Assembly (NCBI GenBank): GCA_029553475.1
Contig: JAKPKV010000166.1
Span: forward strand, 3,520 to 67,519
DNA: 64,000 bases
Source of the DNA: Armatimonadota bacterium
GTDB taxonomy: Bacteria; Armatimonadota; Hebobacteria; CAIYQO01
Reading direction: 5' to 3'
A program made the translations under genes and the position numbers. Shown piece by piece: positions 408 to 30,650 of this stretch (position 1 is the stretch's first letter; each line of letters begins with the position of its first letter). The notes beneath the pieces were generated by a model. It was not told the DNA's origin. It saw only the letters and a list, made by a program, of their open reading frames with translations, and did not search any database.

Positions 408-498
408 TCGTCTGGCCGTTACCTGTGCGTCATCTTCCGCAATCTCCCGGCAACGTGGGGGTGAGATACTCCGGTATCCTAACCCGTTGGAGGTAGCG

Positions 499-1161: not shown

Positions 1162-1218
1162 CCTGCCGCCGTCCTGTCAGGGATGACCACCGTGCGCCCA
1201 TGGGCGGAAAGGAGTCGT

Positions 1219-1389
1219 ATGAAGCCGGAAATTCAGCCCTTGCCCGCCCGCGAGCCGGGGGGCGCGCGCGGCAAAGAGGCCCGCGTCACCTGCCCGGTAT
1301 GCGGGGGAAGCGATAAACTGAAATGCACCCACGGCATGCTCGTCTGCACGCGCTGCTACTGGGCGACGGAATGGAAACAGGCCAGTTGA
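1219..1389 (+). CDS. small zinc-ribbon protein (CPVCGG...CTRCYW), function unknown
   Basis: ATG at 1219 preceded by GAAAGGAG; two CxxC pairs; only 56 aa, so a tentative call. Confidence 0.4.
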   Translation: MKPEIQPLPAREPGGARGKEARVTCPVCGGSDKLKCTHGMLVCTRCYWATEWKQAS

Positions 1390-1466
1390 CGCACTGACAG
1401 ACCACCCACGCGAGCCCGGCGGCCACCCCGCCGGGCTCGCGCGCTCAGCCCCCCGCTCGCGTTCGA

Positions 1467-2246
1467 CTACGGGCTCATCACCTGGCCGCCGGTGACGTTG
1501 ATCGCCTGGCCGGTCATGTAGCTGCTGGCGTCGCTGGCGAGGAAGACGACCATGTTGGTGATATCGTCGTAGCTGGCGCCGCGGCCCAGCGGCACCTGAC
1601 CCTCGTACATCTTGCGCACGTCCGCCACGCTCATGCCGCGGTTGCGCGCGTATTGCTCGAAGAGACTGTCCTGCCACAGCGGGCTGTCCAGCAGGTTGCC
1701 GGGGCAGATGGCGTTGGCGCGCGCGCCGTGCGGGGCCAGCTCCAGCGCCACCGACTGAATCAGGCCGATGGCGCCGAATTTCGACGCCGCGTACGCGCTG
1801 TTGCGGAAGGAGCCGCGCTTGCCGGATTTGGAGTTGATGGCGACGAGGGCGCCGCTCTGTTGCGTGATGAACTCGCGGGCGGCGTATTTACAGCAGAGCA
1901 TGGCGCCGACCAGGTTGACGTCAATCACCGTGCGCCACTTCGCCGCGTCCGCGTCTTCAATCGCCTCGGCGATGAGGATGCCGGCGTTGGCGACCATGAT
2001 ATCCAGCCGCCCCCAGCGCGCCACCGCGGCGGCGACCATCCCCGCCACCTGCGCTTCATCGGTGACGTCCACCGTATAGCTCATGGCCTCCGGCAGGTCC
2101 GCCGCCACCGTCGCGGCGTTCCCGCCGTTCAGATCGGCCACCAGCACTTTGCAGCCTTCCGCCGCCAGCCGCCGGCAAATCGCCTCGCCCAACCCCTGCC
2201 CGCCGCCGGTGACAATGGCGACGCGGCCCTCGATATTCGCTAACAT
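1467..2246 (-). CDS. SDR-family NAD(P)-dependent oxidoreductase (sorbitol-6-P / gluconate 5-dehydrogenase-like)
   Basis: IVTGGGQGLG Rossmann motif; NSKSG and YAASKFG catalytic Ser and Tyr-x3-Lys; AAGGGAG RBS 8 nt before the ATG at 2246. Confidence 0.85.
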   Translation of the reverse strand: MLANIEGRVAIVTGGGQGLGEAICRRLAAEGCKVLVADLNGGNAATVAADLPEAMSYTVDVTDEAQVAGMVAAAVARWGRLDIMVANAGILIAEAIEDADAAKWRTVIDVNLVGAMLCCKYAAREFITQQSGALVAINSKSGKRGSFRNSAYAASKFGAIGLIQSVALELAPHGARANAICPGNLLDSPLWQDSLFEQYARNRGMSVADVRKMYEGQVPLGRGASYDDITNMVVFLASDASSYMTGQAINVTGGQVMSP

Positions 2247-2268
2247 CACATGTTCTCCCTTGGACTCG

Positions 2269-2481
2269 CTAGGCAAATTTCAAGCGCCCGATCGGCAACG
2301 GGATCGGCCGATTGAGCGATGTTGCCGTTTCGATCCACTCGTTGATGATGATCTCGGCGTTGGCCAGCGCTTCCTGATACGTGCCGCCATCGGCCATGCA
2401 ACCCGGTAGCTCCGGCACTTCGGCAATGAAGGCATTATCTTCATTGCTCCAGTAAATGATAATTTCGTATTTAATCATCAT
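2269..2481 (-). CDS. hicB: HicB-family antitoxin (UPF0150)
   Basis: MMIKYEIIIYWSNEDNAFIAEVPELPGCMADGGTYQEALANAEIIINEWIE is a typical HicB; its start overlaps the stop of the upstream hicA-like ORF (ATGATGATTAA). Confidence 0.8.
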   Translation of the reverse strand: MMIKYEIIIYWSNEDNAFIAEVPELPGCMADGGTYQEALANAEIIINEWIETATSLNRPIPLPIGRLKFA

Positions 2482-2873: not shown

Positions 2874-3455
2874 TCACCGGGCGCGCAACTCCTGCTCCGC
2901 CGTGCGTTCAAGCGTCAACTCCATATAATATTCCGGCTCCTCGGCGAAGCCGCGGGCGGGGTCGGGCTGGCGGGTTTGCTCGCGGACGACGGTGAAGCCC
3001 ATGCTGGTGTAGAGTTTCACGGCGCGGGTGTTGGCGAGCTGCACGGTGAGGGACATGACCCGTGGGCCGACCTCGCGGGCGATGGCCAGCAGGCGGGTCA
3101 TCAGCGCGCGGCCCAGGCGCTGTCCCTGATAGGCCGGGCGGAGGCAGATGCCGAAGATGCTGGCCGGCGCGCCGTCGCTCCAGCGATACCAGGCGTAGCC
3201 CGCGATGCGCCGGTCCGCCGTTTCCGCCACCAGCACCACCTCCGTGGGACTGTCCGCGCGGCTGGCGTTGCGCAGCGCGTGTTCCCGGTCCAGCGGATAG
3301 GGGCAGTAGAAGCGGATATGCTCCGGCGGGATGTCCGCGTAGCAGTCCGCCAGCGCCTCGCCGTCCGCCGTGGTCAGCGGGCGGAGGTGGACCGTCTGGC
3401 CGTTCTTCAATACTATCGCCACGCCGGGAAAGCGTGCGTGATCCGCCGGGAGCAT
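2874..3455 (-). CDS. GNAT-family N-acetyltransferase
   Basis: MLPADHARF... start preceded by AAAGGAGG; acetyl-CoA binding motif RLLAIAREVG...QGQRLGRALMTRL; the upstream 143 codons of the track ORF are a high-GC artefact. Confidence 0.8.
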   Translation of the reverse strand: MLPADHARFPGVAIVLKNGQTVHLRPLTTADGEALADCYADIPPEHIRFYCPYPLDREHALRNASRADSPTEVVLVAETADRRIAGYAWYRWSDGAPASIFGICLRPAYQGQRLGRALMTRLLAIAREVGPRVMSLTVQLANTRAVKLYTSMGFTVVREQTRQPDPARGFAEEPEYYMELTLERTAEQELRAR

Positions 3456-4873: not shown

Positions 4874-5839
4874 TTACGGTCCTGGCGAGAGAGAGAGACA
4901 ACGGAACCCAACGTTGATGCTCCAGTAGTCCGGGCTGAAGTAGTAGCGGAGCGCGCCGCGGCAGTAGCCCTCGCCGTTGAGCCACGAGCCGCCCCGCAGC
5001 ACACGGTTATCGCCCGTCGCCGGGCCGGTGGGGTTGCGTGACGGCGCCGTCTTGTAGTAATCGGACTGGTACCAATCCGCGCACCACTCCCACACATTGC
5101 CCGCCAGGTCGTGCGCCCCGCACCAGCTTACACCCACCGGAAAACTCCCGGCCGGCCAGGTGCTGATGTCCTTGCTGGATGAGTTGGAGGAGTTCGCACA
5201 CTTCGCCCCGTCCCAGGCGTTCCCCCACGGGTAGAGGCGCCCGTCCGTCCCCCGCGCCGCTTTCTCCCACTGCGCCTCTGGGGGGAGTGACACGCCCGCC
5301 CAGTCCGCGTAGGCTGTCGCGTCGTGCCAGGTCACGTTCACGATGGGGTGCCCCTGCAGCGCCGTGTCCGTCCAGCCGCCCTTTCCCGCCCAACTCCGGC
5401 CGGGGGGGAAGCGCGGCAGCGCCCGCCCCGTGGCTTGACAAAACGCCCGGTATTGCGCCACCGTCACCTCGTACTTGTAGATCCAGTAGCCGTCCAGGTA
5501 GACGCGGCGCTGGGGACGCTCATCGCTGAAGCCCTCCTTGTCCGTGCTCCCCATCAAAAACTCCCCCGCCGGAACCCACGCCATCACCGCGCCATCCTTC
5601 GGGTTCGTCCGCGCTTTCGCGCGCGCCGGCGGCGGCTCCTGGCCCTTCCACGGCCCAGGGCGCAAGCCGTAGCCGATGGCCGTCAGCGCGAGGAGAAAGA
5701 ACAGGCCGGCGAGGAAGATGCCATAGCGCTTGAGGGGCCGTCCTGGGTGGGCGCGCGCGTGCAGCGCCGTCTCCGCCCCGCAGGCCGGGCAGGTGAGCGC
5801 GCCGGGAGGGAGGTGGTGGCCGCAGTGGTGGCAACTCAT
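4874..5839 (-). CDS. membrane-anchored FGE-sulfatase (SUMF1/formylglycine-generating enzyme-like) domain protein with an N-terminal zinc ribbon
   Basis: CHHCGHH...CPACG zinc ribbon, one TM helix (IFLAGLFFLLALTAIGYGL), then the FGE fold signature ...RGGSWLNGEGYCRGALRYYFSPDYWSINVGFRC. Confidence 0.8.
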   Translation of the reverse strand: MSCHHCGHHLPPGALTCPACGAETALHARAHPGRPLKRYGIFLAGLFFLLALTAIGYGLRPGPWKGQEPPPARAKARTNPKDGAVMAWVPAGEFLMGSTDKEGFSDERPQRRVYLDGYWIYKYEVTVAQYRAFCQATGRALPRFPPGRSWAGKGGWTDTALQGHPIVNVTWHDATAYADWAGVSLPPEAQWEKAARGTDGRLYPWGNAWDGAKCANSSNSSSKDISTWPAGSFPVGVSWCGAHDLAGNVWEWCADWYQSDYYKTAPSRNPTGPATGDNRVLRGGSWLNGEGYCRGALRYYFSPDYWSINVGFRCLSLSPGP

Positions 5840-6267
5840 CGTTCACGCTCTATGCCAGTCTGTTTGCAAATCCGGCGCTTGTACGCCGGGTCTTCCGCTG
5901 CAATGGAATCGCCTTCCTCCCAACAGTATTCCTCTGCTGCCGTTGCTGTCAAACCGGTCGCCTCACTCTTGTTGCCCGCGGGCGCGCGGCGATCCGCCGC
6001 GCCGCCCATCCCGGCTCCATGCCCGCCCGCCCGCGGCGCCGTTGACCGCCGCCCGCCCCCGGTGATAGGATGGGTGAAATGCACACACGTAAGAAACTCT
6101 CTCAACATGGATCGCAACCGGATTGCGGAGGATTTTGCGTGTCTGGCAAGGCGGATGTCCGAAGAGTGTATGAGGCCATACATGCTCGGACATCCAACGC
6201 GGCCAGGCGCGAAAAAGACCCGCAAGACGGCTGCGAGACGTGTTGAGAGAGTTTCTAAAGGAGCCGT

Positions 6268-8139
6268 ATGCCTGAATCCTTTTCCCTCGCGGTCGCGGCG
6301 CTGCCGGTTGATGAGCTGATGCGCGTGCTGGAGGCGGATGCGCCGGCGCTGCGCGCGTATCTGGGGCGGGAGATTTACGCGCAGGAGGACCCCGCCTACC
6401 TGGAGGCGGGGCGGGCGCGGCTGCTGGAGACGCTGCGGCTGCACCGCGAGCGGGTCGGGAACCGGCCGACGTGGCTGCTGCGCGCGCCGGGGCGGCTGAA
6501 CGCCTTCCTCGAATACCTGGACATGTGCGACGGCGACCATATGTCCACCACCATTGACGGCGACATCCCCATCGCGGTGTCGCCGCGCGAGGACGATCTG
6601 CTGGACGTGGGCAACACCCATCCCCTCTTCCCGCCGCAGCGGCTCGCGGTGCGCGCGGCCTTTCGTGACTTCACCGAGGCGCCCTTCGCCACGAAAGCGG
6701 TGGCGGGGATGGCGGACAACTGGGACACGCGCTCGCTGCTCTTCCCCTACTACGGGCGCGAGCAGGGGCACTGGCTGAACTACGTGCTGAGCCCCTACAT
6801 GCGCGTGCTGTGGGAGCATCCGGAGCTGCCGCTGTGCGGGGCGGACATCACCTTCGGCCCGGCCACTGTGCCCTTCCGCGCCGGCACCAGCTCCTCCTCG
6901 GCGGTGGTGGTGCTCGCCTTCCTGGCGATGTGGCTGACGAACCGCGAGCATCTGCCGGCGTGGTCGAAGACGGAGGTCTGCCGCCTGCTGGGCGAGGCGG
7001 AGTGGTACGTGGGCACGCACGGCGGCGCCAATGACCAGATGACCATCCTGCTGAATCCGGCGAACAGCGTCAGCTACAACCGCCACTCGCGCGCCGAGCT
7101 CGGCTCCACCCCGCTGCCCTTCCTGCGCGGCGTGCACGTGGTGCTGGCCAATTCGCTGTGGGAAGTGAACAAGAGCGCCGGCGGCAACCAGAGTTTCAAT
7201 ATGCGCAAGGGCTGGATGCAGATGGGCGACGAGCTGGCGCGGCTGGTCATCGCCGCCGCCTACGCGGCCATCCAAGCGGGCGCGGCGGCGCAGCCGGGCT
7301 GGCTGACGGCGCTGATGGCGCGCAAGTTCAATTTCACCCCCGGCCAGCCGCCGGAGCTGCTGGAGCGCCGCCCGGACTACTGGGAGCAACTCGCCACCAA
7401 ATACCACAAGTTCGGCAGCCTGCACGAGGAGATCCTCGGCATTCCCGCGGCGGCCATCGAGGAGTTCATCGCGATCCTGCCGGTGAAGATCACCCCGGCG
7501 GAGGCGGGCAAGATCCTCGGCCTGCGCCGCGAGGCGGTCGAGCGCATCTACACCTCCCCCCGCCGCGACATTGGCGGCTATCACATCCGCACCACCGCGC
7601 GGTTTTTCCACCGGCAGAATATCATCGGCCGCCGGCTGGAGGCGATCTTCCTTGAGGCGGAGGCGCGCATCGCCGCCGGCGACCTCACCCCGGACTCCCC
7701 GGACTACGACACCTACCGCCATGAAGTGGGCGTGCTGGTGGACGATCTGCAGGACGCCCTCACCTTCGATTTTCGCGTCTCCGTGCCGCAGCTCGACCTG
7801 CTGCTCAGCATCGCCAAGCGCGGCCCCGGCTACCTGGGCGGCAAGCTGACCGGCGCCGGCAAGGGCGGCTGCGTCTCCATCCTGACGCGCGGCGAGTCCT
7901 CCCACGCCATGTGCGCTTATCTCGACCGCGAATACTACGGCAAGCCGGAGCGTTTCGAGACCTACCGCCAGATGCTGGAAGACGACCTGCGCTACAGCGC
8001 CCCCGGCAGCCGCGAGTATGAGTCCGCCCAGGAGCGCCTGCATATCCTCGAGTCCGCCCTCGCCCACATCACCGATCAGCGCCGCGTGGTCACCTTCAGC
8101 CGCGGCGCCTGCCCGCTGGAGCTGGGAGGGAAGGGGTGA
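6268..8139 (+). CDS. GHMP-family sugar kinase (galactokinase-like), unusually long at 623 aa
   Basis: Galactokinase signature APGRLNAFLEYLDMCDGD; GHMP motif PFRAGTSSSSAVVVLAF; C-terminal GAGKGGCVSIL; AAAGGAG RBS before the ATG at 6268. Confidence 0.7.
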   Translation: MPESFSLAVAALPVDELMRVLEADAPALRAYLGREIYAQEDPAYLEAGRARLLETLRLHRERVGNRPTWLLRAPGRLNAFLEYLDMCDGDHMSTTIDGDIPIAVSPREDDLLDVGNTHPLFPPQRLAVRAAFRDFTEAPFATKAVAGMADNWDTRSLLFPYYGREQGHWLNYVLSPYMRVLWEHPELPLCGADITFGPATVPFRAGTSSSSAVVVLAFLAMWLTNREHLPAWSKTEVCRLLGEAEWYVGTHGGANDQMTILLNPANSVSYNRHSRAELGSTPLPFLRGVHVVLANSLWEVNKSAGGNQSFNMRKGWMQMGDELARLVIAAAYAAIQAGAAAQPGWLTALMARKFNFTPGQPPELLERRPDYWEQLATKYHKFGSLHEEILGIPAAAIEEFIAILPVKITPAEAGKILGLRREAVERIYTSPRRDIGGYHIRTTARFFHRQNIIGRRLEAIFLEAEARIAAGDLTPDSPDYDTYRHEVGVLVDDLQDALTFDFRVSVPQLDLLLSIAKRGPGYLGGKLTGAGKGGCVSILTRGESSHAMCAYLDREYYGKPERFETYRQMLEDDLRYSAPGSREYESAQERLHILESALAHITDQRRVVTFSRGACPLELGGKG

Positions 8140-8145
8140 CGGGGC

Positions 8146-8308
8146 GTATGCGCCACGATAGGGTTCGCGTATCCTTCGTACTCGTACTCATCGGAGCGCC
8201 CATTGGAGCGCGGACATCCTGTCCGCACGTATCTGATTTCGAGTACGACTACGAGCACGAGTACGAGCACGAGTACGAGCACGAGTACGAGACGAGCGCT
8301 GACGCGCT
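8146..8308. repeat. dispersed ~160-bp repeat element, copy L; contains an internal palindrome GCGGACATCCTGTCCGC and a GAG(Y)AC hexamer tandem array
   Basis: Reverse complement is a close match to 15283-15411 (same ends AGCGCTGACGCGC / TATGCG.CACGATAGGGTTCGCGTATCCTTCGTA), differing mainly in tandem-repeat copy number. Confidence 0.85.
8241..8292. repeat. hexanucleotide tandem repeat GAG(T/C)AC, ~8.5 units (12-bp GAGCACGAGTAC x ~4)
   Basis: Read directly: gagtac gactac gagcac gagtac gagcac gagtac gagcac gagtac gagacg. Confidence 0.9.
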
Positions 8309-8341
8309 GATGGCGCGTATGGGGTGAAGGCGGGGGGACGC

Positions 8342-9322
8342 ATGACACGCATCGCCTGTATTGGCGCGGGAGGTATGGCGCGGGTGCGCGGGAAGGCGCT
8401 GCGGGCGGCGGGGGCGGAGATCGTCGCCGTCGCCGCGCGGCACGAGGAGACGGCGCGCGCCTGCGCGGAGGCATTGGGCTGCGACAGGTGGACGGATGAG
8501 TACCGCCTGGTGCTGGACGCGCGGCCTGACGCCGTGCTGGTGGAGGTGCCGCACGCCGCGCAGCAGGGGATCGTGGCCTGGGCGCTGGCGCGGGGGCTGC
8601 ACGTCTTCATCGGCGGCGCGCTGGCGGGGTCGGCCGCCGAGGGGGAGGAGATTCGCGCGCTGGCCGCGCGGCGGGGTCTGGTGGTGGAGGCCGGCTACCA
8701 GGCGCGCTACCAGGATCTGTTCGAGACGGCGAAGGTGATGCTGCGGGCGGGCGCGCTGGGCGAGCTCGTGGCGGTGCGCAGCATCGCGCTGTGGGGCGGC
8801 GACCCGGCGACGTGGTACTACGATCAGGCGATGAGCGGCGGCATGCCCCTCACGCACATGACTTACGCCTTCATCAACCCCGTGCGCTGGCTGCTGGACG
8901 CCGACCCGCGCTGCGTCTCCGCCTTCGCCAACCGGAAAAAGCACACCGCGCCGCACCTCATCGCCGAGGAAACCTGCGTGGCGACCCTGCTGTTCCCCGC
9001 GGATGTGCCGTACACCCTCACCGCCGGCTTCGTGAAGCCGGACGCGCTGCCGGCGTGGAGCATCACCCTCATCGGCACCGCGGGCGCGCTGGAGCTCTTC
9101 CCCGACGACATGGAGCCCGGCCGCTATACCGCGTACCTCGGCGGGGAGCCGCGGACGGTCCCATGCGCCAGCGACGGCTTCACCGCGCAGGCCGCCGCCT
9201 TCCTCGCCGCCATGCGCGGGGAGGAGGCCTGCCGCAACGCCCCGGAAGCGACCCTCGGCGACCTGCGGGTCGCCGAGGCGATTGTCGAATCGGCGCGGAC
9301 GACGCGGACGATCGCGTTATAA
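8342..9322 (+). CDS. Gfo/Idh/MocA-family NAD(P)-dependent oxidoreductase
   Basis: N-terminal MTRIACIGAGGMARVRGKAL Rossmann motif and EVPHAAQQGIVAWALARGLHVF motif typical of the family. Confidence 0.8.
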   Translation: MTRIACIGAGGMARVRGKALRAAGAEIVAVAARHEETARACAEALGCDRWTDEYRLVLDARPDAVLVEVPHAAQQGIVAWALARGLHVFIGGALAGSAAEGEEIRALAARRGLVVEAGYQARYQDLFETAKVMLRAGALGELVAVRSIALWGGDPATWYYDQAMSGGMPLTHMTYAFINPVRWLLDADPRCVSAFANRKKHTAPHLIAEETCVATLLFPADVPYTLTAGFVKPDALPAWSITLIGTAGALELFPDDMEPGRYTAYLGGEPRTVPCASDGFTAQAAAFLAAMRGEEACRNAPEATLGDLRVAEAIVESARTTRTIAL

Positions 9323-9478
9323 GTCAGGTTCCCGATAAAATCGGAACGCACACTCGGTCCCGCCGGGACTGACTGCGCATGGCCGGATGCGCACCCGGTG
9401 GCATCGCTGCCGCCCCGTGTCGGGCGCCATCCAGCCATGCCATGCGGAGTCTGTCCCTTCCGCGCCGGCGCCGCCGGG

Positions 9479-10093
9479 CTAATTCCGCCCGCCGCCGCCG
9501 GCATTCCCGCCGGGGCCGCGCCCGCCGCCGCCCTGGAACGTCGGCTGCACGGGCTGCAACTGCGCGGGGAGGGGCTGGCGGGTGAGCTTGCCGTCGGTGA
9601 TCTCCACCGAGAGGATGTCTTTCGACCGCAGCAGGTAGAGGGTGGTATTGACCAGCAGGTAGCCGGGCGCCGGCTCCTGGCGCACGCCGCGCTGGTTGGG
9701 GTCCGCCGTCTCCGCCGGGTCCTTCAGGTTGGCCGTCGCCTCCACCTTCAGCGTGTCCTGGTTGATGCGGGCGAAGATGTCGCCGGTGACGAGGAGCAGG
9801 TCGCCGTCCTTCACCAGCAGAATGGCGGGGGCGTTGCGCTTCGCCACCTCGGCGTAATACTGCTGGAACGCCTCGCGGGCGGCGCCCTGGGCGGGCGGCT
9901 CCGGCAGCGCGCCGTAAATCTGCATCACCTTCTCCACCTTCAGCGTGGCGGGCGCGATGCGCGCCAGCACGCCGGAGCGCAGGGCGAAGATGCCCTTCGG
10001 CGTGTTCACCATCAGCGCGCCGCCGTTCGGCGCCACCTGGGCGAACAGCGCGCCGCCCAGCAGCAGGATCACGAACAGGACGAACGTTTTCAT
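9479..10093 (-). CDS. hypothetical exported protein (signal peptide, Gly-rich C-terminus) at the distal end of the secretin operon
   Basis: MKTFVLFVILLLGGALFAQVA signal peptide; long ORF with coding-like composition; C-terminal GGGGRGPGGNAGGGGRN. Confidence 0.6.
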   Translation of the reverse strand: MKTFVLFVILLLGGALFAQVAPNGGALMVNTPKGIFALRSGVLARIAPATLKVEKVMQIYGALPEPPAQGAAREAFQQYYAEVAKRNAPAILLVKDGDLLLVTGDIFARINQDTLKVEATANLKDPAETADPNQRGVRQEPAPGYLLVNTTLYLLRSKDILSVEITDGKLTRQPLPAQLQPVQPTFQGGGGRGPGGNAGGGGRN

Positions 10094-10148
10094 CAGGTAC
10101 CTCTCTTTCTCTGATTGCGCGGGTCTTTCTCTGATCGCGCGGGCCCGG

Positions 10149-12503
10149 TTATGGCTTCTCCGCCTCCGCCGCCGGCGCGTTCGGGGGCGCCGGCGCCGCG
10201 GGCGTATCGGACAGCTTGGCGCGCTCCTGCTCGGTAATCGCCGTCACGCTCTCCTCGTCGCGCAGGATATGCGGGGTGAGGAAGACCATCAGCTCGCTCT
10301 GCTGCGCCTTGTTCGCGCGCGACTTGAACAGCCCGCCGAGCAGGGGGAGTTTTGACAGCACCGGCACGCCGGAGTTGACGTTCTCGGTGTTCTGCTTGAT
10401 GATGCCGCCGATGACGATGGTCTGCCCGTCATTCACCATCACCGTCGTCTTCGCCTGGCGGTTGGCGATGATCGGCGCGTTCATTTCCACCTCGCGCCCG
10501 ATCAGCTCGTTGATCGTCTGCTGCACGTCCAGGCTGATCATGTTGCTGTTCTGGCTGATGCGCGGGGTGACGTTCAGCGAGATGGAGACGTTCTTGAACT
10601 CCACCGTCTGGCGCAGGTTGCCGTTGCTCGTCTGCTCTGACGAGGAGACGAAGGGCACGTCCTGCCCGATGCTGATCGTCGCCGGCACGTTATCGGCGGT
10701 GGTGATGCTCGGCGTGGAGTAGACCTTCACGTTGGAGCGCGTGGTGAGCGCGTGCAGCAGCGACTGCAGGTTGGCGCTGATGACGCTGTATTTCATCCCC
10801 AGCTTCTCCTCGGCCAGACTGAAGGCGGTCTTCACGTCGTGCTTCGTCGGGTCATGGTTCACCCCGTGCGGGTCGTTCGCCCAGTTCCACTCCACGCCGA
10901 ACTTCGTCGAGTCATCCAGCGTCACGTCCACGATGGCCACCTGGATGAAGACCTGCGGCGTGCGCCGGTCAAGCTGTTCGATGATGCTCTCCACCATGGA
11001 GAAGGACTGCGGCGGGCCGGTGACGAGCAGCGTATTGGTCTTATCGTCCGCCACCACGGTAATGCGGCGCAGCGAGGCGATGGGATCGCCGCTGTTGGCG
11101 TTGGCGCTGCCCATGACCACATCCCAAAAATTCATGCGCGAGCCGCTGCCGCGGAAGAGCGACATCATCGTCTGCGAGACGGTGGACGCCTTGGCGAACT
11201 TGAGCTGGAAAGTGCGGGTGACGTCGCTGAGCACGTTCGGCGCGTCGAGCTCCTCGATGAGTTTGTCGAACTCGCGCAGGTTCTGCTCGGTGGCGGTGGC
11301 GACCACGGCGTTCGTGCGCACGTCGGCGACGACGACGTTCTGCTTCAGGCCGGCGTATTCGGTGGCGGTCAACTGCCGCTGCTGCGTGGACGTCCACGGG
11401 TTGCGCGACGGAAGGCCCCCCTGCGGCTGCTGGAAGAGCGTGTTCAACTGGCTGGCCACATTGGTGGCGTCGGCATACTGCAGCCGGTAGGTTTTCGTGC
11501 GGACTTCCGGCGTGGTGTTGATGTCCAGCTTGCTGATCAGCCCGATCACCATCTTGATCCGCTCTTTCGAGGCGGAGATGATGATGGCGTTCGTGCGCTC
11601 ATCGGCGGAGAGTTTCAACTCGCCGCGCAGGCTCAGCACGCCGTCGTCCGTCGCCACCCGCGGCTGTCCCGGCTGGTTCGGCTGATTCGGCTGGTTGGGT
11701 TGCCCCGGCCGCGGCTGCACCGTCGGCGTCGCCGCGCCGAAGACCTTTTCCAGCGAGGTGATGAGCACCCTCGCGCTGGCGTACTGGCACAGGTAGACCT
11801 CCACGTCCAGCACGTCGGACGTGTCCTTGTCGAGCAGGCTGATGATCTGCATCAACCGGCGCACGTTGCCTTCGGTATCGGTGACGATGAGCGTATTGCT
11901 GCTGCTCACCGCCAGCAGGTTCGCCTGGTCGTCCGCCACCAGCGGCTTCAATTCCGCCTGCAGCTTGGCCGCGCTGATGTAGGTCACCGGGATCACCTGG
12001 GTGACGATCATGTCGCTGTCGCCCAGCGTCGCCGGATCGGCGCCCATCTGCACCGTCGCCTTGTCGGCGATGGATTTCTTCAACGGCACCACGCGGATGA
12101 GCTTGTCCTTCAGCGTGCCGACCATGGTGTAGCCGCGCACGCGCAGGGCGGCGTTGATCACCTCATAGGCCAGCGGCAGCTTCACCTTGTGCATGCTGGT
12201 GATCGTCACGGTGCCTTTCACGTCGGCGTCCATCACGATGGGGATGCCGCTCGCCATGCTCAAGAAGTTGAGCACGTTGGCGAGATCCGCCTTGGTGAAG
12301 GCGATGGACACCTCCACGGTCTCCGGGTCGGCGGGGATGGGCGGCGCCGCCGGCGCCGGGGCCCCGCCCGGCGCGGCGAACGGCACCTCGATCTGCTCCG
12401 GCGCGTCCCCCGCCGGCGCGGCGCCCTGCCCCCAGGCCACCAGCGCGGAGACCCCCACGAATAGAACTACGATCACCAGCGTGAGCTGCAAACGTTTCAT
12501 CAC
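10149..12503 (-). CDS. gspD: type II secretion system secretin GspD (secretin family; PilQ-like)
   Basis: Signal peptide; repeated N-domains; C-terminal secretin domain ...VIANRQAKTTVMVNDGQTIVIGGIIKQNTENVNSGVPVLSKLPLLGGLFKSRANKAQQSELMVFLTPHIL. Confidence 0.9.
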   Translation of the reverse strand: MMKRLQLTLVIVVLFVGVSALVAWGQGAAPAGDAPEQIEVPFAAPGGAPAPAAPPIPADPETVEVSIAFTKADLANVLNFLSMASGIPIVMDADVKGTVTITSMHKVKLPLAYEVINAALRVRGYTMVGTLKDKLIRVVPLKKSIADKATVQMGADPATLGDSDMIVTQVIPVTYISAAKLQAELKPLVADDQANLLAVSSSNTLIVTDTEGNVRRLMQIISLLDKDTSDVLDVEVYLCQYASARVLITSLEKVFGAATPTVQPRPGQPNQPNQPNQPGQPRVATDDGVLSLRGELKLSADERTNAIIISASKERIKMVIGLISKLDINTTPEVRTKTYRLQYADATNVASQLNTLFQQPQGGLPSRNPWTSTQQRQLTATEYAGLKQNVVVADVRTNAVVATATEQNLREFDKLIEELDAPNVLSDVTRTFQLKFAKASTVSQTMMSLFRGSGSRMNFWDVVMGSANANSGDPIASLRRITVVADDKTNTLLVTGPPQSFSMVESIIEQLDRRTPQVFIQVAIVDVTLDDSTKFGVEWNWANDPHGVNHDPTKHDVKTAFSLAEEKLGMKYSVISANLQSLLHALTTRSNVKVYSTPSITTADNVPATISIGQDVPFVSSSEQTSNGNLRQTVEFKNVSISLNVTPRISQNSNMISLDVQQTINELIGREVEMNAPIIANRQAKTTVMVNDGQTIVIGGIIKQNTENVNSGVPVLSKLPLLGGLFKSRANKAQQSELMVFLTPHILRDEESVTAITEQERAKLSDTPAAPAPPNAPAAEAEKP

Positions 12504-13258
12504 AGTGTCCCTTCCTGCGCGCCGCGCGCGCGCCCGCGCCCGCGGAAATCACGGGTTGGCTGCCCATTATCTATCGCCGACGGTCGGCCACCCGGCGGCG
12601 GGGCGGTATTCGCCGGCTGCGCCGCCGGCGGGTTGGGCTGGGCCGGCGCGTCAGTCTTCGGCGGCGTGGTGGCTTCTTCCACTTTATTCGCCCCCAGATT
12701 CAGCGTGACAGTGTGGCCGTGCGCCTCCAGCGTCACCACCTCCGGCTGAATGGTTTTCAGCGTGTAACCATAGACCATGCTGCCCACGCGCGCGTATTCG
12801 GCCAGCTTCGTCTCCAGGTTCTCGATCAGCGCGTACGCCTCGTCGCCGATCTCCACGTTGCCGGTATAGGCCAGGGTCGGCCGCGGCGCGGCCGGCGGCG
12901 GGGCGACCGGCGGCGGCGTCACCGGCGTGATCTGGAAGGGCACGTCCGGCACGGGCGGCGGCACGTCGGCTTGGGCGGGGATTATCGGCTTGCTGGCGGC
13001 ACCGCGCGCGCGAAAAAGGTTGCGCTGCACGATGATGCCGTCATCGGCCGTGTCCCCGCCCGCCGTCTCCGGGGCGGCGGGCGTCGTCGCCCGCGGGCGC
13101 CCGGCGCGCTCTGCCGCGAAATCCTCGCCGGCGGAGCCGGAGAGGATCCTCACCACGGCGAAGATGACGCCCCCCGACAGCGCGAGCACGACGAGGATGG
13201 CGATGAGCGCCATGCGCGGCGAGACGTCCCGTGAGGTCATGGATGCAGCGGTGCTCAT
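12500..13258 (-). CDS. GspC/PilP-like secretin-interacting membrane protein (TM helix, Pro-rich linker, C-terminal beta domain)
   Basis: Start ATG overlaps the upstream pilO-like stop (ATGA); MALIAILVVLALSGGVIFAVV TM segment; PPPVPDVPFQITPVTPPPVAPPPAAP linker; sits between pilO and the secretin. Confidence 0.55.
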   Translation of the reverse strand: MSTAASMTSRDVSPRMALIAILVVLALSGGVIFAVVRILSGSAGEDFAAERAGRPRATTPAAPETAGGDTADDGIIVQRNLFRARGAASKPIIPAQADVPPPVPDVPFQITPVTPPPVAPPPAAPRPTLAYTGNVEIGDEAYALIENLETKLAEYARVGSMVYGYTLKTIQPEVVTLEAHGHTVTLNLGANKVEEATTPPKTDAPAQPNPPAAQPANTAPPPGGRPSAIDNGQPTRDFRGRGRARGAQEGTL

Positions 13259-13809
13259 GGCTTCCCTCCCGACGTGCGGCCATCCGCCATCACGTAGCTG
13301 GACAGCGTCAATTCCACGCGCAGCGGATCGCCCGGTTGCTCGCCTGGGCGTATCGTCACCTGGTCCACCGCCAGCAGCGGCGTCGCCTCCCGCGCGCGCC
13401 GCAGCAGCGTCGTCAGCGCGGAGAGCGTGGCGGTCACTTTCAGGCGCAGCGGGAAGCGCGTCACGCCCGCGCGCGTCACCGGCGGCGCGGGCTGCATCGT
13501 CGCCACCGCGGCGCCGCAGGATTCCGCCAGCGCCCCCACCTGGGTCATCGTCGCCGGCAGGTGCTCGCTCCACGACCAGGTTTGGGCGCGCGCGGGGATG
13601 CGCGCGACGAGCGCCTCGCGTCCCTCCAGCGCCGCCGCGCGCTGCCGCGCGTCGCGCGTCGCGCGGGCGATCGCGTCGCGCGCCGTCGCGTCGGCGCGGG
13701 CGATATCCCCCGCGGCCCAGTACTGGTATCCCAGCAGCGCCGCCAGCGCGAGCACCAGCACGACCGCGGTGCCCACCATCCGGCGCATGCGCGTCAGTGC
13801 TGTCGTCAT
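13255..13809 (-). CDS. PilO/GspM-like pilus/secretion assembly protein
   Basis: Single N-terminal TM (VGTAVVLVLALAALLGY) followed by a coiled-coil-like segment; position after pilM/N; translationally coupled on both sides. Confidence 0.6.
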   Translation of the reverse strand: MTTALTRMRRMVGTAVVLVLALAALLGYQYWAAGDIARADATARDAIARATRDARQRAAALEGREALVARIPARAQTWSWSEHLPATMTQVGALAESCGAAVATMQPAPPVTRAGVTRFPLRLKVTATLSALTTLLRRAREATPLLAVDQVTIRPGEQPGDPLRVELTLSSYVMADGRTSGGKP

Positions 13810-15215
13810 CGGCGTCCCTCCGCCACCCGGCCTGGCGCGCGCGTCACCGTCGGGTCCTCGGCGACCGCCAGCAGGCAGGTCAGTTGAAAGGTATATCCCT
13901 TGCCGTCGCTGTCGGCCGTGGTGGCGTCGAGCATGGCGCGCGTGACGCCGCTCACCGCGCCCAGCGCGCGCACCGCGTCGGCAACGGTGGCGGACGTATC
14001 GGCATGCCCTTTCAGCGTCAGCACGCCCTTGCCGCGGTCATAGGAGAAGTCGGAGAGCGTCACCGGTTCCGGCAAGGTCGCGCTCAGCGCGCGCAGCAGC
14101 TCCAGCGGACGGCTCGCGGGCGCGGCCAGCGCCTCGGTGACCTGTTGCGCGGCGAGCAGCCCGCCGCCCGGCGATGGGGGCACCGCGCGCTGCGCCGCCA
14201 GCGCCTCCGCTTCCACGCGCCGCAGCGCCGCGCGTGACGCCGCCAGCCGCTGGTGCCCCTGATAGGCGAAGGTCGCCAGCACGACGGCGATGAGCAGCAG
14301 CGCGGCCAGCGCCCACGCCAGCCGCGCCCGCTCGGCGCGCGTCCGCGTCACCCGCGCCGGCAGCAGGTTCAATCCTGCCGCCCCCCGCGCCGCCAACGCC
14401 AGGCCGATGGCCGTCGTGAAGGCGCCGGGCGGATCAGGCAGCTCCTGTTGAAAGCCGTGCGGGTCGCGCACGGCCTGCCAGGGGGTGGCGCGATGCACCG
14501 GGATGCCGAGGGCGTCAGTCAACGCCTCCGCGCCGGCCTCCGCTCCGGCCAGCAGCGCCTGTGCCGGCCCCGCGGCGCCCGTCAGCCAGGGACGCGCTTC
14601 ACGGGCGATGCGCGCCGCCCAGCCGTCGGTCGCCGGCGCGCCGGCGAGCACGCTGCGGCAGTTCAGCAGGCGGTCGCCGTCATACAGGCAGAGGTCGCTC
14701 CACTTCGCCCCCGCCATCACCAGCAGGTGCGGCCCGTCCGGGTGGCGCACCGCCCCGGCGGCGGCCAGCGGCGCCGGCAGCAGCAGGGCGCAGGCGCGCC
14801 CGGATTCCCGCGCCAGCAGCAGCCGCTCCTCCACCGCCGTGCCGCGCGCGCCGGCGATGACGGCGTGCGGACGCCCGTCCGGCCCCGGCGTCAGCGCGTA
14901 ATGCCACGCCATCTCCGGCAGCGGCAGGGGAAACTGCGTTTCCGCCTCAAAGCGCACCACCCGCGCCAGCTCGGCCGGCGCCGCCGGCGGCAGGCTGGCG
15001 GTTTTCACCGCGCAATCTGACCCCGGCAGGCTCATGGCGAGGCGCGCGGCGCCCACCCGCGTCTCGCGGAAAAAGCCGGCCAACACCTCGCGCGCGGATG
15101 CGCCCTCCAGCGGCAGATACGCCGCCAGCGTCACCGCGCCGTCGCGCCGCACTTCCACGATGCGTATCGCATCGTCGCCGATATCCACGCCCAGCGTGCC
15201 GTTGCGTCCCACCAT
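13806..15215 (-). CDS. PilM (actin-like ATPase fold) fused to PilN
   Basis: N-terminal VGRNGTLGVDIGDDAIRIVEV (PilM/FtsA-like); C-terminal LNLLPARVTRTRAERARLAWALAALLLIAVV (PilN TM motif). ATG at 15213-15215; the 37 codons upstream in the track ORF run into the repeat element and are not coding. Confidence 0.8.
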   Translation of the reverse strand: MVGRNGTLGVDIGDDAIRIVEVRRDGAVTLAAYLPLEGASAREVLAGFFRETRVGAARLAMSLPGSDCAVKTASLPPAAPAELARVVRFEAETQFPLPLPEMAWHYALTPGPDGRPHAVIAGARGTAVEERLLLARESGRACALLLPAPLAAAGAVRHPDGPHLLVMAGAKWSDLCLYDGDRLLNCRSVLAGAPATDGWAARIAREARPWLTGAAGPAQALLAGAEAGAEALTDALGIPVHRATPWQAVRDPHGFQQELPDPPGAFTTAIGLALAARGAAGLNLLPARVTRTRAERARLAWALAALLLIAVVLATFAYQGHQRLAASRAALRRVEAEALAAQRAVPPSPGGGLLAAQQVTEALAAPASRPLELLRALSATLPEPVTLSDFSYDRGKGVLTLKGHADTSATVADAVRALGAVSGVTRAMLDATTADSDGKGYTFQLTCLLAVAEDPTVTRAPGRVAEGRR

Positions 15216-15282
15216 ACACGTCCTCGATCCTGACTGTTGTCGGGGGGCACCTCTCCCCCCGGCCCCATACGCGTCATCATCG

Positions 15283-15411
15283 CGCGTCAGCGCTCTTTTC
15301 GTACTCGTGCTCGTGCTCGAAATCAAATACGTGCGGACAGGATGTCCGCGCTCCTCATGAGTACGAGTACGACTACGAAGGATACGCGAACCCTATCGTG
15401 ACGCATATGCC
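15283..15411. repeat. dispersed ~130-bp repeat element, copy R, inverted relative to copy L at 8146-8308
   Basis: Reverse complement aligns with 8146-8308, including the palindrome CGTGCGGACAGGATGTCCGCGCTCC, the GAGYAC hexamers (fewer copies) and both ends. Confidence 0.85.
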
Positions 15412-15534
15412 CCCCAACTCCCTCCCCTGAGCGGGGAGGGGGAGGGAGCGGAAATATGATTCCGGTATAAATTTTCTACCCAGGTGCTCCCCCTCCCCAT
15501 TCAGCGAGGGGGTTGGGGGGAGAGGTGAAGCTCG
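15411..15534. repeat. cluster of GC-rich stem-loop repeats (CCCTCCCC-loop-GGGGAGGG; GGGGGTTGGGGGGAG motif)
   Basis: Hairpins ccctcccctgagcggggaggg and ctccccctcccc...gaggggggttggggggagag; same motif family as 20124-20251 and 41810-41940. Confidence 0.8.
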
Positions 15535-16713
15535 TCACGACTCCCGCCAATACATTGTCCGCGTCGTCCAGTCGCTCCCGTTCTGCTCCAGGCCCAGCAC
15601 GCAGGTCACCGTCGCCTGCACCCCGTCGGCGTCCTGGCCGGTGGAGCGCACGGTGAAGACGCGGGAGCGCGTGGTGAGCAGCTCCGCCACCTGGCGGAAG
15701 CGCTCGACGCTCATCCCTTCATCGTCCAGCAGCTCGCCCAGGCTCGCATACGGCCCGGTCGTCTCCCGCCGCTGCACGATGGCGTCGGCGGCGGCCTCGT
15801 CCATGTCGGGCAGGGCCATCAGCACCGCTTTCGGCGCGGTATTGATGTTCACCAGCCCTTTCCGGACGCGGTCCGTCGTGGTCGTCACCCGGTCGTAGAT
15901 CGCCGCCACCTTCTCGCGCGACAGGCCGTCCATCTGCAGCAGGTCCGCCGGGCTGCGGAAGGCCGCCGCGCCGCGCTGCGCGATGATGGCGTCAATCTCC
16001 TCTTCCGTCAGCTCTTCGCTGAACGCCTCGGTCAACTCCTCTTTGGAGGCGGTGAAAAGGTTCACCCGCGGCTGGCCGGCCGCGTCGGTGTTCGTGTCCG
16101 ACGACGAGACGGTGAGCAAATCCTCCAGCGTCCGCCCGTCCGCCGTCACCCGCGTGGCGAGCAGCTCGCGAGTGATGCCCTTCACCAGCAGCAGCTCGCG
16201 CACGGTGACGAACGGCGCGTTCCGGCACCGGTACGGCGGCGTCAGCGTCTGGTAGTAATCTGATTCCGCGCCCTGCTCGCCGGGCGTGTCGTCCTCGTCG
16301 CGCCAATCCAGCACGGCGTCCACCACCTCCGCCGGCAGCAGCATGGCCAGCGTCTCCGCCGAGGCGGTGTTCAGGTTGATCTTGCCGGCCTCGTCGTCCA
16401 CCAGCGTCCGGTAGACCGTCATCCCCGCCGCCGCGCCGTCCGCCTCCGCCGGCTCCAGCAACAGGCGGCCGGCCTGCAGCGCGGTATACGGCTGTGCCAT
16501 CTCGCTGATGAGCGCCGCTTCCGCCCGCGCCAGGCCGGCGCGCGCCGCCCAGCGCGCGCGCGTCAACTGCGCGAAATTTCCCGCCGCCTGCGTGTCGCTA
16601 TGCACGGCGGCGGCGAAGCCCGCCACCAGGATGACCAGCACCGCCAGCATCCAGAGCGCCGTGATGAGCGCGATGCCCCGGCGGTTACGGCGTCGCATCG
16701 GCACCCTCCTCAC
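15535..16713 (-). CDS. gspK: type II secretion system minor pseudopilin GspK
   Basis: RRGIALITALWMLAVLVILV N-terminus; two helix-hairpin-helix motifs INLNTASAETLAML and VNINTAPKAVLMAL typical of GspK. Confidence 0.85.
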   Translation of the reverse strand: MRRVPMRRRNRRGIALITALWMLAVLVILVAGFAAAVHSDTQAAGNFAQLTRARWAARAGLARAEAALISEMAQPYTALQAGRLLLEPAEADGAAAGMTVYRTLVDDEAGKINLNTASAETLAMLLPAEVVDAVLDWRDEDDTPGEQGAESDYYQTLTPPYRCRNAPFVTVRELLLVKGITRELLATRVTADGRTLEDLLTVSSSDTNTDAAGQPRVNLFTASKEELTEAFSEELTEEEIDAIIAQRGAAAFRSPADLLQMDGLSREKVAAIYDRVTTTTDRVRKGLVNINTAPKAVLMALPDMDEAAADAIVQRRETTGPYASLGELLDDEGMSVERFRQVAELLTTRSRVFTVRSTGQDADGVQATVTCVLGLEQNGSDWTTRTMYWRES

Positions 16714-17368
16714 CGGCCGTCTCCGCGGTGGCCATGGCGAGATTCGCGGTGGCGGAGAGCACCACCGGCGCGGCGCCGTCCGTATCCGACCGCAGCGTCA
16801 GCTCCACCCGCGCCGCCCGCGGCAGCGTGGCGCCGTCCGGCCATTCCATCAGCCAGTCGCCGTCCGCCGGCAGGTAGCGCACGTTGAAGCCGATCACCCG
16901 CGCGGAGAGCCGCCGCGTCTCCGGCTCCGCCTCCGTCTCCGTCTCCTCGGCTTCCAGGCCGGGCGTGCGGTGCACCTGCACGTACAAGCCCGGCTCCTCG
17001 CCCGCCGCCGCGTCCGCCATGCGGTAGCGCACCTGCTGGAGGTCGCCCGCCGGCGCCTCACCGTCCAGCGCATGCGCGGTGGTGAGGAAGGTCACCTGGT
17101 CGGTCTCATACTCGGCATCCGCCCCGACATTGTCCTCGCCCACGAAACCGGTCGTCTCGCCCGGCTGCGGATAGGCGCTCGCCAGCTCCGCGGTCAGTTG
17201 CGCCAGCAGCACGCGGCCCGTCTGATACACCGCCTGATGCGCCTCCGCCCGCGCCATCGCCGTGGCGGCGGCGCCATAGACGCCATACACGGCGCTGATG
17301 AAGATGAGAAAAATGCCCATCGCCACCAGCATCTCGATCAGCGTGAAGCCGGAATGGCGTCGTGTCAT
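16685..17368 (-). CDS. gspJ: type II secretion system minor pseudopilin GspJ-like
   Basis: Prepilin N-terminus GFTLIEMLVAMGIFLIF; gene order between gspI and gspK; ATGA overlap with gspI. Confidence 0.7.
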   Translation of the reverse strand: MTRRHSGFTLIEMLVAMGIFLIFISAVYGVYGAAATAMARAEAHQAVYQTGRVLLAQLTAELASAYPQPGETTGFVGEDNVGADAEYETDQVTFLTTAHALDGEAPAGDLQQVRYRMADAAAGEEPGLYVQVHRTPGLEAEETETEAEPETRRLSARVIGFNVRYLPADGDWLMEWPDGATLPRAARVELTLRSDTDGAAPVVLSATANLAMATAETAGEEGADATP

Positions 17369-17889
17369 CCGCCCGGCCTCCCCGGCGCGGCGGGGTTTTC
17401 GCCCGCGCCGCCCGCACTGCCCGCGCCGTCATCCGGCGCCGGGCCTTCTCCCCCCCGCTCTTCCTCCGCGACCGGCGGGGCTGGCAGCGGCCGCGGGCGC
17501 AGCGCGGTCTCCAGCGTGTAGCGCCGCAGGCCATGTTCCCAACTCACGGTGACGCGCAGGGGATACAGGCCCTCATCGTCCGCGCTGGCCACCTGCGCCT
17601 CCCAGGCATACCCGGACGCCAGCTCGTCGAAGGCGCCGTGCTCGGCGCCGGGCTCCAGCATCTCCTGCCGCGCATATTCCGCCGCCACCTGCTCCGCCAG
17701 CAGCGCCGCGCGCGAATAGGCCGCGGCGGCCTCGCTGCCGCGCAGGCACGCCGCGGCCGCGCCCACCACGCCGACGATGCCCACCGCCAGCACCGTCATC
17801 GCGACGATGACTTCCAGCAGGGTTAAACCCCGTCGGCGGCGATATGCGGCTGTGCGGCAATCGTTCTTCACACGTGCCCCTGTTCTCAC
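17365..17889 (-). CDS. gspI: type II secretion system minor pseudopilin GspI-like
   Basis: RRRRGLTLLEVIVAMTVLAVG prepilin-type N-terminus; position in operon. Confidence 0.65.
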   Translation of the reverse strand: MRTGARVKNDCRTAAYRRRRGLTLLEVIVAMTVLAVGIVGVVGAAAACLRGSEAAAAYSRAALLAEQVAAEYARQEMLEPGAEHGAFDELASGYAWEAQVASADDEGLYPLRVTVSWEHGLRRYTLETALRPRPLPAPPVAEEERGGEGPAPDDGAGSAGGAGENPAAPGRPGG

Positions 17890-20109: not shown

Positions 20110-20123
20110 ACGATAACTTTCAC

Positions 20124-20251
20124 CCGGACCCCTCCCCCCAACCCCCTCCCCGAACCGGGTGAGGGGGAGTGATCGCATACTATTCCGTATTATTCTTCAT
20201 GATCTTCACCCCTCACCCGGTTCGGGGAGGGGGTTGGGGGGAGGGGTCCGG
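20124..20251. repeat. 128-bp palindromic element: 43-bp perfect inverted repeat arms (GC-rich) around a 42-nt AT-richer spacer, in the gspE-gspF intergenic region
   Basis: Arm 20124-20166 ccggacccctccccccaaccccctccccgaaccgggtgagggg is exactly the reverse complement of 20209-20251. Confidence 0.9.
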
Positions 20252-20267
20252 GTACCGGAAACCCCTC

Positions 20268-30591: not shown

Positions 30592-30614
30592 GCGGGACGC
30601 GAAAGCGGGCGGGC

Positions 30615-30648
30615 GAGCGTCCCCCGGATGTGCATCCGGGGGACGCTC
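30615..30648 (+). terminator. strong GC-rich hairpin immediately downstream of the caspase gene (candidate intrinsic terminator, no U-tract)
   Basis: gagcgtcccccggatg tg catccgggggacgctc: 16-bp perfect stem. Confidence 0.5.
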
Positions 30649-30650
30649 CG

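Follow-up and report, generated by a model that had tools for sequence, protein, structure and literature searches.

A 64,000-nt stretch of DNA from an uncultured Armatimonadota bacterium (assembly GCA_029553475.1, contig JAKPKV010000166.1, positions 3,520 to 67,519; this whole stretch is referred to as the window) carries two inverted copies of a palindromic repeat, denoted copy L and copy R. The element is very probably a dispersed, non-coding, mosaic family of intergenic repeats, the two window copies being independent insertions. In its complete form it is a 131–177-nt rod-like palindrome. Its ends are 11-nt imperfect terminal inverted repeats (TIRs), with blocks A and B in subterminal position. 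The two arms consist of (GTACTC)n and (GAGTAC)n arrays that are inverted relative to each other and vary in length, and an apical cassette forms the tip. For both copies in the window, this cassette is a hairpin of the repetitive extragenic palindrome (REP) type, GGAG-CGCGGACA-TCC-TGTCCGC.

A first-pass annotation of the window had described the two copies as one element with common ends, a central palindrome and hexamer repeats. End-to-end alignment of 8145–8321 (plus strand) with 15266–15409 (minus strand) bears out this description, the real extents being slightly bigger than noted. Copy L (177 nt) and copy R (144 nt) align over their whole length and differ mainly by a gap of 30 nt in the array of GAGYAC hexamers. 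The pair accounts for the longest inverted repeats of the window (I1, I3 and I5 in the repeat finder output, 81–91% complementary). Moreover, the window contains exactly two occurrences of the 27-mer CACGATAGGGTTCGCGTATCCTTCGTA and exactly two of the 28-mer GGAGCGCGGACATCCTGTCCGCACGTAT, as compared to none in 100 dinucleotide-preserving shuffles. Both copies begin with a 5′ block, CATATGCG(T/C)CACGATAGGGTTCGCGTATCC, which is followed by short TCGTAC-type repeats. The centre is GGAGCGCGGACATCCTGTCCGC with the tail ACGTAT(C/T)TGATTTC, followed by GAGTAC/GAGCAC hexamers, and the common 3′ block reads AGCGCTGACGCGC..GATG(G/A)CGCGTATG.

In copy L the parts follow one another on the plus strand as TIR/block A, a short (GTACTC) arm, the REP core, a long (GAGYAC) array and block B/TIR. 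Block A (CGTATGCGCCACGATAGGGTTCGCGTATCC, 8145–8174) holds an invariant 27-mer and includes the left TIR. A degenerate second head, GGAGCGCCCATT, at 8193–8204 precedes the REP core at 8205–8226, i.e. the GGAG head and the hairpin GCGGACA-TCC-TGTCCGC. The GAGTAC/GAGCAC array at 8240–8296 comprises 9.7 units according to Tandem Repeats Finder, versus 3.3–3.5 units per arm in copy R. Block B (AGCGCTGACGCGCTGATGGCGCGTATG, 8295–8321) includes the right TIR, and its outer stem pairs with block A in the predicted folds. Copy R is read on the minus strand, with block A (CATATGCGTCACGATAGGGTTCGCGTATCC) at 15380–15409, the 5′ hexamer arm (TCGTAGTCGTACTCGTACTC) at 15359–15378, the REP core (GGAGCGCGGACATCCTGTCCGC) at 15333–15354, the 3′ hexamer arm (GAGCACGAGCACGAGTACGA) at 15299–15319, and block B (AGCGCTGACGCGCGATGATGACGCGTATG) at 15266–15294.

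The element is not unique to these two loci, an outcome that would have spoken against the first-pass annotation, as at least eight further loci were found. A metagenome scan with block A provided four new loci (L005, which equals L008, L006, L007 and L009), and a profile of spurious gene-caller peptides identified two more contigs (131 and 197 kb) of JGI metagenome 3300010344 with two copies each. Ten element loci are available for this organism from ~125 kb of large contigs and four small contigs, with nine REP cores at eight of these loci. Comparison of all copies resolved six modules: block A, block B, module C (GGCTCGACGGCGTCTCGCCCTCCAGGGGA), module D (GCAATAGTTCGGCGCCCGGCGCTGTGATCGG...), the REP core with its tail, and the hexamer arrays. 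The two window copies and L142a share the order A, (GTACTC)n, REP forward, (GAGTAC)n, B. L009 has retained the A and B ends with its whole interior reverse-complemented, and in L005 and L006 the REP is found in this “flop” state together with extra modules. L007 has kept ends and arms and carries a D-C cassette without REP. Other module combinations are present at L140a and L142b, and at L140b the 3′ end of a PadR open reading frame (ORF) carries a REP core on its own. Such a mosaic, with modules in at least six arrangements and the REP core either way round between A and B ends, is the hallmark by which bacterial interspersed mosaic elements (BIMEs) are recognised. A further trait of BIMEs is that they bind host proteins (IHF, gyrase and Pol I). 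The rod architecture, the hexamer-array arms and the exchangeable and invertible tip are new.

Long rods are predicted on both strands for each of the five complete A...B copies (z −1.4 to −7.4), and a compensatory change separates the outer stems of the window copies (GCGCCA/TGGCGC versus GCGTCA/TGACGC). The TIRs, CATATGCGTCA/TGACGCGTATG, differ by 1–2 mismatches, which on the top strand are G-T pairs except for one C-T in L142a. The ends of the element are sharp, as similarity extends from CATATG to CGTATG between unrelated flanks that are G-rich on both sides, or C-rich on both sides in L142a. A like run is present on both flanks in each of the five complete copies: GGGG...GGG in three of them, CCCCC...CCCCCC in L142a, and AGG in L009. 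These runs could represent a short target duplication or a mere preference for G-tracts, given that G-runs are abundant in the intergenic DNA of this genome. Runs of a GGTGAAG/AGAGGTGA heptamer are also located directly before several copies (L007, ~5680–5720; L140, 9730–9760; L142, 14870–14920), and G-rich tracts may be a preferred insertion target.

Sharp ends and paired flanking runs invite comparison with a classical DDE-type miniature inverted-repeat transposable element (MITE). The rod would then be a deletion derivative of an insertion sequence whose DDE transposase recognises the 11-nt TIRs and duplicates a short G-rich target, and the REP hairpin would be a mere passenger that landed in the rod tip. 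This description accounts for the imperfect TIRs and sharp ends in five copies, for the homopolymer runs on both flanks, as expected from a target-site duplication, and for the L007 rod without any REP core. However, the apparent duplication may be due to chance, G-runs being so common in this intergenic DNA, no parent insertion sequence with these ends is seen in ~125 kb of the organism's DNA, and block A returned zero matches in 185,579 reference genomes. We therefore regard a classical MITE as the less probable, if serious, description of the family. Concerning the mover of the whole rod, a Y1 enzyme and a DDE transposase acting on the TIRs are both candidates.

The assignment of the family as non-coding was weighed against the gene models that overlap it. 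The JGI annotation calls a 59-aa ORF on copy L (8148–8327, MRHDRV...EYEHEYEHEYE...), which would make the element a gene for an acidic, Tyr/His-rich peptide. Gene callers predict ORFs on several copies, and the hexamer arrays always give Asp/Glu-Tyr/Phe/His codons in one frame. However, stop codons and a 5-nt difference in length interrupt this frame in copy R, and the called ORFs differ in start, end and strand between loci. The third codon position of TAC is invariant and the first and second vary, which is not a coding pattern, and the ATG at 8148 has no ribosome-binding site at proper spacing. The in-frame Asp/Glu-Tyr appearance of the arrays is a consequence of the 6-nt period alone, and a small protein gene is hardly credible. 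Public pipelines annotate hypothetical proteins of 59–69 aa on the repeats (P0001 and P0002; e.g. MRHDRVRVSF...EYEHEYEHEYE), which are translation artefacts. Recognition of the family would allow such false proteins to be weeded out of public metagenome annotations.

A second functional reading, also raised in the first-pass annotation, is that of a regulatory RNA motif reused at operon boundaries, i.e. a transcribed mRNA stabiliser, processing site or attenuator that sets differential expression within operons. The stable rod fold is in line with such a role, and the window copies, L142a and the REP-only L140b are co-directional with flanking genes on the same strand. REPs of Escherichia coli are known to stabilise upstream mRNA. 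Conversely, orientation is mixed over the family: block A is co-directional with its surroundings at five of seven loci and the REP core at four of six, and further copies are placed between genes that converge or diverge. Folding is about as good on one strand as on the other, and a specific RNA structure would not withstand the shuffling, inversion and replacement of modules observed from locus to locus. A first impression of strict co-orientation with transcription (four of four) was dropped in view of the similar fold energies of both strands and the mixed gene orientation. Searched at gathering score, the whole window contains no Rfam 15 family, and relaxing the threshold to E ≤ 1 for copy L gave just two chance snoRNA matches, both outside the element. 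Scans of the two gaps that hold the copies detected no promoter-like or U-tract terminator-like sites. A dedicated cis-regulatory RNA is accordingly improbable, and the suggestion of a motif reused at operon boundaries finds weak support at best.

The window belongs to a 181-kb contig of JGI metagenome 3300010344, and its GspK is identical to a protein entered at NCBI under the name Armatimonadota bacterium. Copy L is situated between a GHMP-kinase-like gene (6268–8139, plus strand) upstream and a GFO/IDH/MocA oxidoreductase gene (8375–9322, plus strand) downstream. Copy R is placed within a type II secretion operon, as had been recognised previously, in a 319-nt gap between gspK (15535–16698, minus strand) upstream and a gspL-like gene with a PilN domain downstream (13806–15215, minus strand), the latter starting with its own Shine-Dalgarno sequence and an ATG at 15215. 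The operon order is MarR, gspE, F, G, H, I-like, J, K, copy R, gspL-like, gspM-like, the gene for a 252-aa protein, gspD, and the gene for a 204-aa protein; the oxidoreductase gene is convergent to it. Pfam and gene calls confirm the gene content reported earlier for the segment between the copies: the oxidoreductase, the 204-aa protein, the secretin GspD, the 252-aa protein, a GspM-like protein (T2SSM_b) and the GspL-like protein. The 204-aa and 252-aa proteins are without a Pfam match, and no transposase or recombinase domain is present among the Pfam matches of the genes between the copies, likewise in keeping with the first-pass annotation. In each window copy block A marks the upstream side of the host transcription unit, and the copies are mutually inverted because they belong to host transcription units of opposite orientation.

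Comparison with relatives suggests how copy R came to lie in the operon. The gap between gspK and gspL amounts to 319 nt in the window organism, filled by copy R and two CCCCTCCCC...GGGGAGGGG hairpin repeats of another family (15410–15526, no strand assigned), to 137 nt, from gene coordinates, in a relative with 71% GspK identity (P0004), to 210 nt in L145 (64% GspK identity), where it holds an inverted doublet of module C, and to 6 nt in L147 (58% GspK identity), where it is empty. From the 6-nt gap of this distant relative it follows that copy R is an insertion into a once-contiguous type II secretion operon. Different repeats have settled in this spacer more than once. In L145 (Armatimonadota metagenome-assembled genome (MAG) GCA_964590255.1), the module C doublet at 11237–11388 stands in place of the A...B element and represents an independent colonisation. 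The CCCCTCCCC...GGGGAGGGG hairpins constitute a third repeat family of the window, with members at 20122–20253 (45-nt arms, 100% complementary), 15410–15453, 15487–15526 and 41815–41927, two of them thus residing in the gspK–gspL gap.

The first-pass annotation had further proposed that the inverted copies could mediate inversion or deletion of the 7-kb segment between them. As a recombination substrate or switch, the copies would invert, or together with other copies delete, a segment that holds the distal half of the secretion operon. Two inverted copies of 144 and 177 nt, with 81–91% complementary gapless blocks ~7 kb apart, are in principle sufficient for homologous recombination. Some sequence variation also points to exchange between them. 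The copy R of one NCBI MAG (L134) differs by two SNPs (T to C and C to T) that equal the copy L state, and in one assembly (L004) two bases at the 5′ end of copy L equal the copy R state (CATATGCGTCA). These are the only variants between assemblies at the window copies, copy R being identical in seven of eight assemblies and copy L identical or near-identical across four. This pattern suggests gene conversion between the two copies.

The arrangement itself is constant, and the proposed rearrangement is not borne out. Twelve independent assemblies, one of them the MAG GCA_035367115.1, keep the reference order at both junctions. At junction L, the GHMP-like gene, copy L and the oxidoreductase are retained in four of four assemblies, one of which continues through the secretin to the gspL-like gene. 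At junction R, gspK, copy R and the gspL-like gene are retained in eight of eight, with the gap identical at 319 nt. In addition, Pfam reveals no recombinase or invertase domain in or beside the segment (genes 6268–17889), and a single orientation in 12 assemblies does not describe a site-specific invertible segment. Inversion would part gspE-K from gspL-M-D and put the oxidoreductase behind gspK, and the element is also present at many unrelated loci. A role as recombination switch is therefore very improbable, and in the sampled populations the copies do not drive rearrangement of the 7-kb segment. A false lead is thereby eliminated: the segment is no invertible cassette, and the operon is simply broken up by repeats that have inserted into a spacer absent from a relative.

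While the rod is confined to this lineage in the data at hand, its apical REP core is not. Both window copies carry GCGGACA-TCC-TGTCCGC with a 7-bp stem and a 3-nt loop, the structure expected of a REP. In E. coli, a conserved 5′ tetranucleotide, GTAG, at the REP hairpin's foot is needed for binding and cleavage by the REP-associated tyrosine transposase (RAYT; PMC3479197), and the window cores present the variant GGAG at this position. The 19-mer GCGCGGACATCCTGTCCGC, the core of the 22-mer, matched over 114 stretches of genome sequence that represent eight or more phyla. This number is a lower bound, and the following counts refer to the matches listed, with taxa assigned by record title. MAGs of Blastocatellia, Pyrinomonadaceae and Pyrinomonadales contribute 55 loci and other Acidobacteriota 5. 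Six Labrys species, including a complete chromosome, account for 18, followed by Verrucomicrobiota (8), Planctomycetota (4), Geobacter/Geobacteraceae (4) and Armatimonadota (Fimbriimonadales, 3); the remainder is made up of other groups with single or few loci each. An identical 22-nt headed core in such distant phyla is new.

Conservation extends beyond the searched 19-mer. Among the matches listed, the adjoining bases are GGA in 113 of 137 cores and GTA in 5 of 137, giving the heads GGAG or GTAG, so that conservation covers a unit of G(G/T)AG head plus hairpin. An inverted partner is located within 200 nt in 71 of the 137 cores listed, mostly 33–71 nt off. When two stem pairs were left free in the search pattern, the variants were compensatory in 19 of 20 cases (G-C for A-T) and in 13 of 15 cases (G-C or T-A), which indicates that the core is under selection for pairing. 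Some matches are evidently due to chance or coding sequence (some viral contigs, Streptomyces and Guyparkeria), and in these the head is absent. Across the 114 loci, only generic protein families (SDR, LysR, kinases) recur beside the core. The lack of a protein family recurring beside dispersed copies is expected, because the repeats are non-autonomous. In the literature searched, 14-mers that include the head returned nothing and a 13-mer only unrelated vector and primer matches. A predicted viral contig of 42 kb (IMG/VR UViG_3300037140_000379; L126, L127 and L129) contains six intergenic copies of GGCGCGCGGACATCCTGTCCGCTT, which is the same hairpin as the REP core with a different head.

A candidate enzyme for this hairpin class emerged from four other genomes (L102, L148, L149 and L150), in which RAYT-like Y1 transposase genes are flanked by GGAG hairpins of the same class. 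In L102, a Spartobacteria MAG, the gene is a member of Y1_Tnp (Pfam E-value 2.6e-9) with the motifs PNHIHVLF (HUH) and YIRDN (Y). Its best NCBIfam model is REP_Tyr_transpos (E-value 9e-19, 67.7 bits, which is under the 80-bit equivalog cut-off), and IS200 scores 25.8 bits. Upstream of the gene are two doublets, GGAGCGCGGACATCCTGTCCGC-11 nt-GCGGGCAGGATGCCCGC.CTCC, with the exact 22-mer, and downstream is one doublet of a covarying core variant. The RAYT-like gene and REP doublets share one open frame (1–2310, minus strand) with N6-methyltransferase-like sequence on both sides, and the unit looks as if inserted into a DNA methyltransferase gene.

The L102 enzyme has 1,518 relatives at E ≤ 1e-10, many of them named “REP element-mobilizing transposase RayT” by JGI; the named sources are Verrucomicrobiota, Hydrogenedentes, KSB1 and Poribacteria, and the top 120 of the 1,518 homologues name no Armatimonadota member. 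RAYT groups outside Proteobacteria have been described (PMC5581495). GGAG-headed hairpins flank three of three sampled family members, with doublets on both sides in a Chthoniobacter member and an inverted pair in a Hydrogenedentes member. The flanking hairpins at L102 and at these sampled members thus tie the hairpin class to the RAYT-like family. In OW818680.1 (L150, a 6.1-Mb genome record), arrays of GGAGCGCGGGCATCCTGCCCGC represent the window core with one compensatory stem change. With a period of 63 nt, they occupy 2547–2736 and 3390–3453, the two ends of a 325-aa ORF that carries the annotation Y1 transposase, and are there translated into the gene model.

With regard to known repeat systems, BOX elements of Streptococcus pneumoniae, Correia and ERIC elements, and SMAG of Stenotrophomonas are modular MITE-like repeats of ~100–200 bp that are non-coding, palindromic, intergenic and often co-transcribed with their neighbours. 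The number of internal subunits varies in BOX, similar to the hexamer arrays, and SMAG are GTAG-headed stem-loops that occur as monomers and dimers. The present element differs from all of these by the lack of sequence similarity, by a variable unit of 6 nt arranged as inverted arrays on both arms, and by its exchangeable and invertible apical cassette. With parvovirus terminal hairpins it shares, by analogy only, the flip/flop property that the same termini enclose an interior in two reverse-complement orientations. No replication-linked hairpin transfer is implied, as here the two states are fixed at different loci.

The resemblance to REP/BIME sequences of E. coli (PMC3479197) is closer. 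Common traits are a short GC-rich imperfect hairpin, a 5′ tetranucleotide head at its foot, an extragenic location, mosaic combination with other conserved motifs in either orientation, and the presence of same-class hairpins around a Y1/HUH RAYT-like gene, in our case in other genomes. In contrast to E. coli with its GTAG head, the head is GGAG and rarely GTAG, most REPs of this organism stand singly on top of a far larger, lineage-specific palindrome whose arms are hexamer arrays, and the L102-type enzyme falls under the NCBIfam equivalog cut-off (67.7 vs 80 bits). REPINs, which are REP doublets that form hairpins (PMC3337134, PMC3116915), were used as a third reference. Like the REPINs of Pseudomonas fluorescens (PMC3116915, PMC3337134), the element is a long hairpin-forming, non-autonomous extragenic sequence of ~90–180 nt built around REPs. 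The same core forms inverted doublets 33–86 nt apart in Labrys, Acidobacteriota and Verrucomicrobiota, and rearranged and long-palindrome derivatives are known for REPINs too. However, a REPIN hairpin consists of two inverted REPs, whereas here blocks A and B and the hexamer arrays surround one apical REP. Moreover, REPIN-RAYT systems are described as mostly vertically inherited, whereas the 22-mer is common to at least eight phyla. As the window copies are not doublets, the element is not classed as a REPIN; judged by sequence it is a REP/BIME/MITE-type repeat whose core passes the structural tests of a REP.

On this basis a wider, clearly tentative interpretation can be formulated. GGAGCGCGGACATCCTGTCCGC and the distinct RAYT-like Y1 family may form a REP system that has spread horizontally over at least eight phyla, and the Armatimonadota lineage may have captured the core as the invertible, exchangeable apical cassette of a new rod. 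The phyla in question would, equally tentatively, be Acidobacteriota, Verrucomicrobiota, Planctomycetota, Armatimonadota, Alphaproteobacteria (Labrys), Desulfobacterota (Geobacter) and others. It is likewise conceivable that the inverted hexamer-array arms of the rod give rise to flip/flop isomers and length variants. Under the more probable repeat-family reading, a RAYT-like enzyme whose gene lies at some other place in the genome would mobilise, or would once have mobilised, the REP core in trans on single-stranded DNA. Owing to the inverted hexamer arms, the tip could flip and the arrays could grow or shrink via recombination, template switching or slippage. The inserted rod would be transcribed within the host mRNA, acting at most as a generic stable hairpin that affects mRNA stability or translational coupling.

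Several observations weigh against the repeat-family reading with this proposed mobilisation. The window copies hold REP singlets at the tip of a larger palindrome rather than doublets, and only L006 has an inverted pair of cores, ~150 nt apart. TIRs together with the possible short G/C-run duplication are typical of DDE-type MITEs and not of Y1/HUH transposition. No RAYT-like ORF was found in ~125 kb of this organism's DNA. The only strong homologue of E. coli RayT, in a Geobacter MAG (L068), was rejected as evidence for the core, because this RAYT, of the proteobacterial type and located near a core doublet, has on its flanks a different REP that resembles those of E. coli. Between assemblies there is no sign of recent mobility, flipping or change in array length: other element loci are 100% identical between assemblies from different samples, and no locus is seen in both flip and flop states. 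It should be noted that the sampled assemblies may all represent one near-clonal population, in which rare rearrangements may have escaped detection.

Published work describes REPIN-RAYT systems as mostly vertically inherited (bioRxiv 10.1101/2022.05.22.493013). Horizontal spread, if true, would contradict this picture of lineage-specific pairs. The same REP core with a GGAG head in distant phyla, together with a large, barely studied RAYT-like family, thereby offers a test case for horizontal REP-RAYT movement. The rod with inverted micro-repeat arms and an exchangeable tip in turn provides a compact natural example of palindromic repeats that diversify by flipping and cassette exchange.

The window contains further repeats apart from those in the gspK–gspL gap. 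A second repeat family (GGGCGAGCGTCCCCGCGAGCCGACTCCGGGGGGAAGTCT) forms an inverted doublet at 56118–56258, with 59-nt arms that are 92% complementary and 23 nt apart. A partial copy is located at 30606–30649, another lies beside the element copy in L009 (~5800–5897), and the core of this family resembles module C. Just upstream of the GHMP-kinase-like gene, an inverted repeat at 6092–6256 has 37-nt arms, 84% complementary and 91 nt apart, and is without an Rfam match. Finally, the region 37300–40430 comprises an internal duplication of ~2 kb (start-to-start distance 2008) and many shorter periodic repeats (45, 144 and 237 nt), probably within one or two repeat-rich protein genes.

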